This document shows positions 49,027 through 50,865 of a stretch of 64,000 bases of DNA, in pieces. The DNA lies in UHGV virus genome UHGV-0300374, one strand, 5' to 3'. Numbering within the stretch: the stretch's first letter is position 1; each line of letters opens with the position of its first letter. Under the pieces are notes generated by a model. That model was not told the DNA's origin and ran no database searches. It saw only the letters and a program-made list of their open reading frames with translations. The DNA comes from a virus. A program made the position numbers and the translations under genes.

Positions 49027-49054
49027 TTGACATAGAAAATTTGGTGAGTATACT
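49027..49054 (+). promoter_or_regulatory. sigma70-type promoter (TTGACA-N16-TATACT)
   Basis: Perfect -35 at 49027-49032 and -10 TATACT at 49049-49054. Confidence 0.55.
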
Positions 49055-49087
49055 GAGCATCATAAACCAACGGGTACTCACCAGCAT

Positions 49088-49330
49088 CACTTAAGAGTCT
49101 TTGAAAAGGGTTTTTAAGTGATGTAATGCGTGGCTCGGTGCAGTGAAGTATGGTGGGGTAGGGTATAATATGGTGCGGTAATGTATGGGTAGTTAGTCTC
49201 AGCTACATTAAAATGAGACTTACCTTTTTAAAAGGTCTTTGGAGAGGGTCTTTTAATAAGGTCTGGTGTAGTAGGGTTGGGCATGGTACGGTCCGGTGTG
49301 GTGTGGCACGGTATGGGTGGATGGTAGTAG
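49088..49330 (+). repeat. GT-rich repeat unit copy 1 (hairpins plus degenerate GGTNN pentamer blocks)
   Basis: cacttaagagtctttgaaaagggtttttaagtg hairpin, GT-rich block, gggtagttagtctcagctacattaaaatgagact hairpin, aaaaggtcttt...gggtcttttaataagg, second GT-rich block; recurs at 50480-50865. Confidence 0.6.
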
Positions 49331-49424
49331 CCACGTTAAAAATCTACCAAGTTTCTAAAGAGTCTTCTGTTGAGGGTTCTTTACAAACAACTTAACAATC
49401 AACTAAAGTGTGGAGCTAAATGCT

Positions 49425-50012
49425 ATGAAACTGTTAAATATCAAAATCACTGGTACTCGTCCTTTCCTGAGCCACGCTGATACGCTGTCAGACCCATTAA
49501 ATCCTCTGACAAAATATCACAAGTCTCTGTCCAGTAAACGTAAAAAGACTGACGAAGATTATGCGCTCTTAGCAGAAAGCCAACTGGTAACTTCTTGTTA
49601 CTACGATGAGCAGTTAGGTTTTGTTATGAACGGTGAGATGATTGAGGCTTGTATCAAGTCTGGTGCAAAACTCAACAAACTTGGTAAGGTAATTGACCGA
49701 GCCATTATGCTGACAGATGTAGTCTTCCCAATGACTATCAAGAACTGTCCAGCAAACCCACAAGAGCTTGCTAAGAATCCAGACTTTATCTATGCTAAGT
49801 CTGTTAAGATTGGTACAGCACGAGTTATGAGCTACCGTCCAATCTTCCGTGACTGGTCTGTAGAGTTCGGTTTGATGTTCGATGAAGAGCAAATCACCAA
49901 AGAGGAACTTCTGATGGTTCTTGAAAATGCTGGCAACCTTTGTGGTGTAGGTGATTGGCGTCCACGCTTTGGTCGTTTTTCTGTAGAAGTTATTTCAGAA
50001 GGTAACGTTTAA
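49425..50012 (+). CDS. hypothetical protein
   Basis: Track ORF 49410-50012 trimmed to the second in-frame ATG ([10 protein letters not shown]); which ATG is used is unresolved. Confidence 0.45.
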
Positions 50013-50014
50013 TT

Positions 50015-50455
50015 ATGAATACAAAAGCATTAGCAGCAAAGTTTAGTTACGGTGACACTGTATCACATTCTGAGATGGATACCTTCTTAGGTATTGTGAA
50101 ACCAACTTATCAAGGTGACATTGTTAAGTACGAAGATGAAATGAAGGCTTATGCGCTTACACGTCTAAACCGACTTGAGAAGTTTATTGAGAAGCTTCTT
50201 AAAGAAGAGAAGATTTATCTGGTTGCTTCAATGGGTGTTGGTTATCGTGTGGTTGAACCTAAGCATCAAGCAACTATTGCAAAACGTAAAATGTCTGGTA
50301 AGATTGGTCGCGCTTTAAAGCAAGCCACTCAAGCGATTGAGAATGTGAACACTATGGCACTTAGCCATCAAGAACGTTCACGACTAATTGAACAGCAAAA
50401 CCATTTAGCTGCTATGAAAGCTAACATTAACAAGCAACGTAGAAAACCTTTCTAA
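50015..50455 (+). CDS. hypothetical protein
   Basis: 146-aa ORF. Confidence 0.45.
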   Translation: MNTKALAAKFSYGDTVSHSEMDTFLGIVKPTYQGDIVKYEDEMKAYALTRLNRLEKFIEKLLKEEKIYLVASMGVGYRVVEPKHQATIAKRKMSGKIGRALKQATQAIENVNTMALSHQERSRLIEQQNHLAAMKANINKQRRKPF

Positions 50456-50466
50456 GTTGACTAGGT

Positions 50467-50490
50467 AGCCTCTTCGGAGGCTCCTTTTTA
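50467..50490 (+). terminator. rho-independent terminator
   Basis: AGCCTC-TTCG-GAGGCT followed by CCTTTTTA. Confidence 0.6.
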
Positions 50491-50865
50491 AAAGGTCTTT
50501 AAACAGGGTCTTTTAATAAGGTTTAGCTAGGTGGGGTCAGGTCAGGTTAGGTGCGGTATGGTATGGGTAGTTAATCGGAGCTACATTAAAATTCGATTAC
50601 ATCACTTAAGAGTCTTTTAAAAGGGTTTTTAAGTGAGGTGTGGTAAGGCGCGGTTAGGTATGGCGCGGTCAGGTCAGGTGAGGTTTGGTGAGGGTAGTTA
50701 GTCTCAACTACATTAAAATGAGACTCACCTTTTTAAAAGGTCTTTAAAGAGGGTCTTTTAATAAGGCGGGGTACGGCTCGGTCTGGTTGTGTGATGTTCG
50801 GCTTGGTTAGGTAATGTATGGAAGGATGGCAGTAGCCTTATAAAAAATCTGCCAAATAAGCTATA
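50480..50865 (+). repeat. GT-rich repeat unit copies 2 and 3
   Basis: Same conserved hairpin/spacer words as 49088-49330, with sequence-divergent but compositionally similar GGTNN blocks. Confidence 0.6.

Follow-up and report, generated by a model that had tools for sequence, protein, structure and literature searches.

Here, we describe a locus in viral genome UHGV-0300374, read on one strand as a stretch of 64,000 nucleotides (hereafter the window), in which arrays of short structured repeats flank two genes. It is very probably a complete Viral Interference Programmable Repeat (VIPR) locus of type II, from the SUSP1 clade, in a Felix O1-like phage. The phage is a Felix O1-like myovirus (Ounavirinae) of the genus Felixounavirus, and positions 48900-51000 share 92-95% identity with Felixounavirus phages LF82P9, bumzen, heid and wV8. 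Between 49027 and 50907 lie five tandem units of 117-139 nt (~128 nt) each, all on the + strand, with two upstream and three downstream of the two genes (Table 1). The upstream array spans 49085-49349 and is followed by a third hairpin; the downstream array spans 50483-50854. Each unit consists of a 39-nt hairpin in one of two sequence variants, a run of 9-13 GGY-NN pentamers (13, 11, 9, 11 and 11 in the units numbered vrRNA1 to vrRNA5) and a 34-35-nt tail with the fold of an H-type pseudoknot. Blocks of GG at a strict 5-nt period were found nowhere else in the window or in the complete heid genome, and none on the opposite strand.

An earlier note on this DNA had described a two-gene cassette between direct repeats of about 250 bp. 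Its promoter, terminator, hairpins, GGT-rich block (50534-50569), spacer word and both open reading frames (ORFs) are all found at or near the coordinates it gave, including the hairpins CACTTAAG...TTAAGTG at 49088-49120 and AGTCTCA...TGAGACT at 49195-49220, and the word AAAAGGTCTTT-N4-AGGGTCTTTTAATAAGG occurs at 49230, 50490 and 50735 (3 matches, against 0 in 100 shuffles). The repetition it reported is real, with tandem arrays of 117-139-nt units in place of a single 250-bp repeat on each flank. Likewise, the periodicity of its GT-rich blocks, given as 5-6 nt, is exactly 5 nt with the motif GGY then NN, its "second hairpin" forms one stem of the pseudoknot, and its "conserved spacer" is itself a 17-bp hairpin.

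The product of the first gene matches PDB entry 36pp_D, "SUSP1 Vipr protein", over its full length (192/195 identical residues, 98.5%, E=8.5e-129), with differences at positions 119, 189 and 190 only. All of the following published contact residues are present: H17, K33, R39, E71, M72, K82, G87, K88, R138, C173, D177, W178 and R179; the "T175" of the preprint is V in both the window and SUSP1 proteins, a discrepancy of the text and not between the proteins. The second gene begins 2 nt past the vipr stop codon and encodes Vap1, which shares 145/146 residues (99.3%) with the product of the gene that follows vipr in SUSP1 and has a predicted DNA-binding fold. Vipr and Vap1 match PHROGs families of unknown function (phrog_4652 and phrog_5926, respectively), searches of Pfam and PADLOC with both proteins gave no match, and the wV8 record labels both genes hypothetical. 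Because both proteins are nearly identical to those of SUSP1, the locus is assigned to type II VIPR. The earlier note had listed two unknown genes at these ORFs, and had missed that the first encodes the protein that reads the repeats.

VIPR is the subject of two bioRxiv preprints dated April-June 2026 (10.64898/2026.04.26.720920, 10.64898/2026.04.26.720927). As described there, the system comprises a small RAMP-like protein, Vipr, with an RRM core, a G-loop and a thumb, an accessory gene, vap (vap1 in type II), and vrRNAs, each with 9-16 YNNGG repeats ahead of a constant tail, which in the SUSP1 clade is a pseudoknot. One Vipr protomer occupies each repeat, hiding GGY and presenting NN, and the presented NN pair with DNA such that every third target base is skipped, producing a protein-held R-loop triplex and transcriptional silencing; disturbing GGY abolishes silencing. 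SUSP1 carries one vrRNA upstream and three downstream of vipr-vap1, and experiments on it showed vrRNAs of ~100 nt that co-purify with Vipr, the complex of the two, silencing, and operation of the skip rule both in vitro and in vivo. Of 20 vrRNAs of the SUSP1 clade for which a target could be identified, 18 are directed at a satellite phage in E. coli genomes. The baseplate hub of this satellite is 72% identical to that of SUSP1, and the skipped base falls at the wobble position for most targets. The same preprints propose that VIPR predates CRISPR (10.64898/2026.04.26.720920, 10.64898/2026.04.26.720927).

For comparison, 76 units (56 distinct) were collected from 19 related loci. Applied to SUSP1, unit calling returned one upstream and three downstream units and a vrRNA1 of 12 repeats, as published, and the unit definition used here therefore matches that of the preprints. 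Across the 685 pentamers of the 56 distinct units, the first position is G in 81%, the second is G in 97% and the third is a pyrimidine in 99%, and the two N positions (N4, N5) are near uniform, with all bases used. Units hold 9-19 repeats (median 12); the first units of two IMG/VR contigs (L015 and L014) hold 19 and 17 pentamers, above the 9-16 of the preprint. Guides differ almost completely among phages with identical hairpins, tails and genes, and differences in unit length lie in the pentamer block. The earlier note had seen that the GT-rich blocks differ and keep their composition and period, and had missed that their variable dinucleotides form a gapped guide, which in vrRNA1 reads AA GT TC GC GA AT GG AG AT AT GC AA (AT).

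In the tail pseudoknot, stem 1 is 4 bp and stem 2 is 6-7 bp long, and loop 3 is A-rich. Among 20 distinct tails, 90.8% of cells are paired and 9/12 pairs have changed on both sides, compared with 25-42% of cells paired when the partners are slid by 1-3 columns. Ahead of each vrRNA stands a hairpin whose stem is 17 bp long, here called the separator hairpin, and another such hairpin closes the upstream array. With variable-length loops replaced by NNNN and six units excluded (5' end cut, or 1-nt indel), 95.3% of hairpin cells are paired and 6/17 pairs have changed on both sides. The inner stem (GUCUU/AGGGU; pairs G.U, U.G, C-G, U.G, U-A) is essentially invariant, the two main sequence variants are related through compensatory changes, and the loop tolerates a 22-nt insertion. 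The earlier note had rightly suggested that conserved hairpins with variable periodic blocks reflect selection on structure or protein binding, and had proposed an analysis of compensatory changes across related phages; both the pseudoknot and the hairpin covary.

The available text of the preprints uses "hairpin" solely for the tail (10.64898/2026.04.26.720920, 10.64898/2026.04.26.720927), and relative to that text the separator hairpins are a small addition. The 17-bp hairpins between units are putative maturation signals, and their wobble-rich inner stem could be a dedicated signal for vrRNA-array maturation, a counterpart of the CRISPR repeat, read by Vipr, Vap1 or a host RNase. A role in array maturation fits with the single vrRNA of a satellite (below), which has its own terminator and lacks such a hairpin. 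Scans against Rfam 15 (gathering score) and for tRNA and tmRNA gave no match anywhere in the window, and vrRNAs are so far absent from Rfam 15. Part of the units is annotated in wV8 merely as "DR_4", the Felix O1 paper is silent on them, and literature searches on Felix O1 repeats and transcriptomes found no description of them.

Blastn with the phage gene corresponding to the baseplate hub identified a chromosomal "phage baseplate protein" gene in 474/5426 complete E. coli genomes. Thirteen of these satellite loci (163 kb) were read, together with 179 kb of flanking host DNA. The islands are ~11 kb long and are inserted between yciI and tonB, in a DUF72 gene beside yecD, beside wrbA or beside dinB; the island in locus L019 spans 5600-17400, and corresponding islands lie in L020-L027 and L035-L038. 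They encode an adenine methyltransferase, small proteins of unknown function, an HNH endonuclease, a tape-measure protein, a baseplate protein and a large serine recombinase, the tape-measure and baseplate-hub genes being homologues of those of the phage. Many islands are disrupted by insertion sequence elements. A single vrRNA-like GGYNN block is present in 4/13 islands, and in the one at L019 6800-6930 (minus strand) the tail is of the SUSP1 type and is accompanied by a separate terminator; no vipr was annotated or noticed on reading the islands.

Each guide was scored against both strands under the NNx (1-nt-skip) rule without gaps, with a threshold of 80%. In the 13 satellites 44/56 distinct guides reach this threshold, and 0/56 reach it in the host flanks; in a shuffle control on 9 satellites, 11/56 guides had at least one of 20 shuffles at 80%, corresponding to ~1% of shuffles. 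In the window, vrRNA1 matches the satellite tape-measure gene at 23/26 (L025 11821), vrRNA4 matches the large serine recombinase gene at 20/22 with the first 9 NN perfect (L026 14870, gene strand), and vrRNA5 matches at 19/22 where a small conserved gene begins, covering its ribosome-binding site, start codon and first codons (L022 6363, L025 7999). Satellite-bearing strains with these targets include GN02350 (vrRNA1), D10 (vrRNA4) and STEC383 (vrRNA5). Best scores for the same three guides are 18, 16 and 15 in the host flanks, and 19, 18 and 17 for shuffled guides (9-satellite run). These three guides match the satellite at 86-88%, or 90-96% without the last, non-guide dinucleotide. For vrRNA1 and vrRNA4 the skipped base is the codon wobble position, as the distance to the start codon is a multiple of three in both. 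No self-target was found in the 64-kb window (best matches at most 16/22), and blastn of the downstream array against E. coli genomes gave no match.

When targets are located from internal repeats only, position-wise matching to natural targets is 83% at the first repeat, 92-99% at internal repeats and 33% at the dinucleotide adjacent to the tail. This dinucleotide is AT in 43/56 units (e.g. 49182-49186 and 50815-50819 of the window). Because of its low target match and its constancy, the last dinucleotide looks to belong to the constant handle, not to the guide.

These results also bear on whether the repeats act as DNA, with the RNA incidental, for instance as a recombination hot spot or minisatellite, as an R-loop origin on the G-rich non-template strand, or as G-quadruplex DNA. 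GT-rich blocks with GG every 5 nt downstream of a strong promoter would suit such an element, as would the variation in unit number and block length among phages and the loss of the cassette through deletion between repeats. However, compensatory changes maintain both the pseudoknot and a hairpin with invariant G.U pairs, which pair in RNA and not in duplex DNA, the protein of the adjacent gene has been solved in complex with exactly such RNA, and the match between dinucleotides and satellite follows a rule that is meaningless for a DNA-only element; we give this explanation almost no weight. That same match is what other candidates fail to explain: a binding site for a TRAP-like ring protein, an RNA that soaks up Hfq, CsrA or the CCA ends of tRNAs, G-quadruplexes of two tiers, an origin that uses an R-loop and T7-like primase sites, boxA-like antitermination (suggested by GGTTCTTTACAA at 49375), Chi-like recombination hot spots and a type III toxin-antitoxin array were all rejected.

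Every defining feature of type II VIPR that can be examined in sequence is present at the locus. Protein identity, the build and covariation of the RNAs, and the guide-satellite match were computed here; expression, ribonucleoprotein formation, the skip rule and silencing are carried over from the near-identical SUSP1 system. By analogy with SUSP1, the strong promoter would drive two vrRNAs and then vipr and vap1, with three further vrRNAs behind vap1, each a GGY-NN run capped at its 3' end by a pseudoknot. Vipr protomers would polymerise along a vrRNA, one per pentamer, burying GGY and exposing NN, and the exposed dinucleotides would base-pair to one strand of duplex DNA, leaving out each third target base, to form a protein-clamped R-loop triplex that blocks transcription. 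The guides appear to be directed at the ~11-kb E. coli satellite, with target sites in the tape-measure gene, in the gene for the large serine recombinase and where a small gene starts. The phage would probably use the five guides against a satellite by which it would otherwise be exploited, repressing its integration and its structural functions. Since the guides hit the satellite, VIPR would therefore be a weapon of the phage against its own parasite.

Among the roles that the earlier note had proposed, a protein-binding array is right in outline, as each Vipr protomer binds one GGY (10.64898/2026.04.26.720920, 10.64898/2026.04.26.720927). Its "structured 5' leader or small RNA from the strong promoter" survives in the second part, with the units being vrRNAs, and not as a leader acting in cis. 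In a version that keeps both parts, the upstream array would additionally be a cis-regulatory 5' leader, with Vipr binding the unprocessed vrRNA1-vrRNA2-vipr-vap1 transcript and autoregulating its translation or stability. vrRNA1, vrRNA2 and the third hairpin follow the promoter and precede the vipr ribosome-binding site, uninterrupted by a terminator, which would allow this, and the arrangement recurs in SUSP1 and Moogle. On the other hand, no result here speaks for autoregulation, the downstream array has like units and no downstream gene to regulate, and the vrRNAs of the satellites stand alone, such that we judge this addition extremely improbable.

Several observations weigh against the VIPR reading of this locus. 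Canonical GGY is found in just 7/13 pentamers of vrRNA1 and 8/11 of vrRNA5, which carry several non-canonical triplets (TGT, AGT, AAT); because disturbed GGY abolishes silencing according to the preprint and the triplets of vrRNA1 are partly non-canonical, vrRNA1 may work poorly despite having the best target match. The match of vrRNA3 is weak to moderate (15/18, and also 14/18 with the first 7 NN perfect), at one site in the recombinase gene that is found in two satellites. No convincing target for vrRNA2 was found in the 13 satellites, where its best match is 17/22 in a tape-measure gene with the first 7 NN perfect, and an exact-pattern scan of viral contigs for its target gave no match. A terminator-like hairpin separates vap1 from the downstream array, with no promoter-like site in between; because there is no such site between vap1 and vrRNA3, the downstream array is proposed to be transcribed by read-through of the terminator at 50467. 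Finally, expression and Vipr binding in this phage are transferred from SUSP1, with the promoter as the part visible here, and the source papers are preprints.

Comparison of the presence and absence of the bracketed genes, as the earlier note had proposed, shows that 118 of 231 phage records with vrRNA-like sequence carry vipr and that 113/231, about half, do not. Felix O1, D1-2, radambza, JN01 and HMD-P8, the five that were read, lack vipr and vap1; each retains the promoter and behind it a single variant-1 hairpin and a single guide with the last tail type. This orphan unit lies at 2850-3100 of L003 in Felix O1, and the other orphan loci are L029, L030, L032 and L034. Such a structure is consistent with deletion between two variant-1 hairpins. 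The recombination substrates for cassette exchange envisaged by the earlier note are thus partly recovered: the constant parts behave as such substrates over evolutionary time, as seen in the varying number of units among phages and the single unit retained behind the promoter in gene-less Felix O1-like phages, and cassette exchange as their function is not upheld.

Loss of vipr and vap1 in 113/231 related records, which would make the system dispensable, is also a point in favor of a decaying or idle locus, in which the proteins are intact and the guides are relics without useful silencing. The partly non-canonical triplets of vrRNA1 and vrRNA5, the lack of a target for vrRNA2 and the moderate target of vrRNA3 point the same way. 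Decay is difficult to reconcile with Vipr and Vap1 being 98.5-99% identical to experimentally active SUSP1 proteins, with three guides matching the satellite, or with guides that diverge strongly while GGY, hairpins and tails stay fixed, which is the pattern of ongoing selection, and we consider it very unlikely compared with an active VIPR locus.

The orphan vrRNAs, whose guides differ among phages, may themselves not be dead relics; the radambza guide, for one, retains a 21/24 match to the satellite. Such RNAs could be taken up in trans by Vipr from a co-infecting relative, and the satellites' own vrRNAs also appear to need Vipr supplied in trans. Alternatively, orphan vrRNAs could be decoys that titrate the Vipr of a rival. 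That the separator hairpins are a dedicated maturation signal and that orphan vrRNAs act in trans or as decoys is, as a joint proposal, speculative and unlikely.

The locus shares with SUSP1 VIPR its promoter, leader, hairpin before vrRNA1 and tail pseudoknots, its genomic position from the DNA ligase gene to the gene upstream of a helix-turn-helix (HTH) regulator, and its target family, the E. coli satellite with tape-measure and baseplate-hub homologues. It differs in that SUSP1 is a Suspvirus and the phage of the window a Felixounavirus, in having two upstream vrRNAs instead of one, and in its guide sequences. According to the preprints, VIPR resembles Class 1 CRISPR-Cas (Cas7-type RAMP filaments) in an RRM/G-loop/thumb protein that polymerises on a guide RNA, in periodic base flipping and in an RNA-guided R-loop, to which we add a constant structured element between guides, our reading of the separator hairpins. 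Unlike CRISPR-Cas, VIPR has no repeat-spacer array, acquisition genes, nuclease or protospacer-adjacent motif (PAM), its guide is non-contiguous, with 2 of 5 RNA bases pairing with 2 of 3 DNA bases, and it is encoded by a virulent phage. No CRISPR array with contiguous spacers was found, a repeat search of the window yielding only the ~128-nt units, and there are no cas genes among the neighboring genes.

Other RNA repeats are similar in form. TRAP sites in Bacillus also have ~11 conserved triplets with 2-nt spacers and one protein subunit per triplet, but their spacers are uninformative and the RNA winds around a closed ring, whereas in VIPR the spacers are the guide and the filament is open and helical; there is no sequence or protein relationship between the two. 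ToxI/ToxN, a type III toxin-antitoxin system, is alike in its promoter, in tandem pseudoknot RNA repeats that bind the protein of the adjacent gene, and in its role in phage-related conflict. ToxI units are 36 nt long and are excised by the toxin that they inhibit, whereas here there is no toxin, and the units are ~128 nt long with variable guides.

Table 1. Features of the VIPR locus, with positions in the window.
Feature	Position	Strand	Remarks
Sigma-70-type promoter, TTGACA-N16-TATACT	49027-49054	+	11/12 consensus matches
Leader, ~24 nt, after promoter	49061-49084	+	
Separator hairpin H1, variant 1	49085-49123	+	17-bp stem, G.U-rich inner part GUCUU/AGGGU
vrRNA1	49122-49220	+	13 pentamers 49122-49186; pseudoknot tail 49187-49220
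Separator hairpin H2, variant 2	49223-49261	+	
vrRNA2	49260-49349	+	11 pentamers 49260-49314; pseudoknot tail 49315-49349 (GTGG/CCAC, TGGTAG/CTACCA type)
Third separator hairpin H3	49352-49387	+	15 bp with one mismatch, just before vipr ribosome-binding site; pairing judged by eye
vipr, RAMP-like guide-RNA-binding protein, 195 aa	49425-50012	+	PDB 36pp_D match
vap1, accessory gene, 146 aa	50015-50455	+	SUSP1 match
Intrinsic terminator-like hairpin and T-run	50467-50490	+	Stem 50467-50482
Separator hairpin H4, variant 2	50483-50521	+	
vrRNA3	50520-50598	+	9 pentamers 50520-50564; pseudoknot tail 50565-50598, stem 2 AATCGGA/TTCGATT
Separator hairpin H5, variant 1	50600-50638	+	
vrRNA4	50637-50725	+	11 pentamers, all canonical GGY, 50637-50691; pseudoknot tail 50692-50725
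Separator hairpin H6, variant 2	50728-50766	+	
vrRNA5	50765-50854	+	11 pentamers 50765-50819; pseudoknot tail 50820-50854 (AAGG/CCTT, TGGCAG/CTGCCA type)
AT-rich inverted repeat closing the locus	50854-50907	+	Overlaps promoter of next gene

The locus sits between the DNA ligase gene and the next conserved gene, and its neighbors are the ligase, small proteins without assigned function and the HTH regulator. SUSP1 has this promoter ahead of vrRNA1 and Felix O1 has it ahead of its single unit, an H3-type element also follows vrRNA1 in SUSP1, and the terminator T-run doubles as the 5' arm of H4. A 48-aa hydrophobic ORF (phrog_22006, 48874-49020) separates the ligase gene from the VIPR promoter; Moogle has it, and Felix O1 and SUSP1 lack it at the corresponding position. 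Elsewhere in the window, ~1.6 kb of non-coding DNA at 5550-7150 holds 25 of the window's 100 YTAACAR heptamers, mostly on the + strand with spacings of 10-11 or 20-22 nt (6181-6402, 6627-6666), along with the short tandem repeats CTATATAG and TATAGAGC. The pattern is iteron-like and could mark an origin or terminal region; the heid record places "repeat_region" features in a similar non-coding stretch separating blocks of genes, which may correspond to 5550-7150.

VIPR is an already known system, with a gapped guide, a protein-held triplex, no PAM and a single ~20-kDa protein, and the window adds no new principle to it. What it provides is independent confirmation in another phage genus, in architecture, RNA covariation and skip-rule targeting of the satellite, along with three additions: the separator hairpins, the non-guide last dinucleotide, and the orphan vrRNAs of Vipr-less phages. 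It also shows that a real RNA-guided system can be picked out from raw sequence alone. The satellite that is targeted is common, as its frequency among complete E. coli genomes indicates, and the VIPR locus comes and goes among Felix O1-like phages whose genomes are collinear in other respects, which is relevant because such phages serve in typing, biocontrol and therapy.

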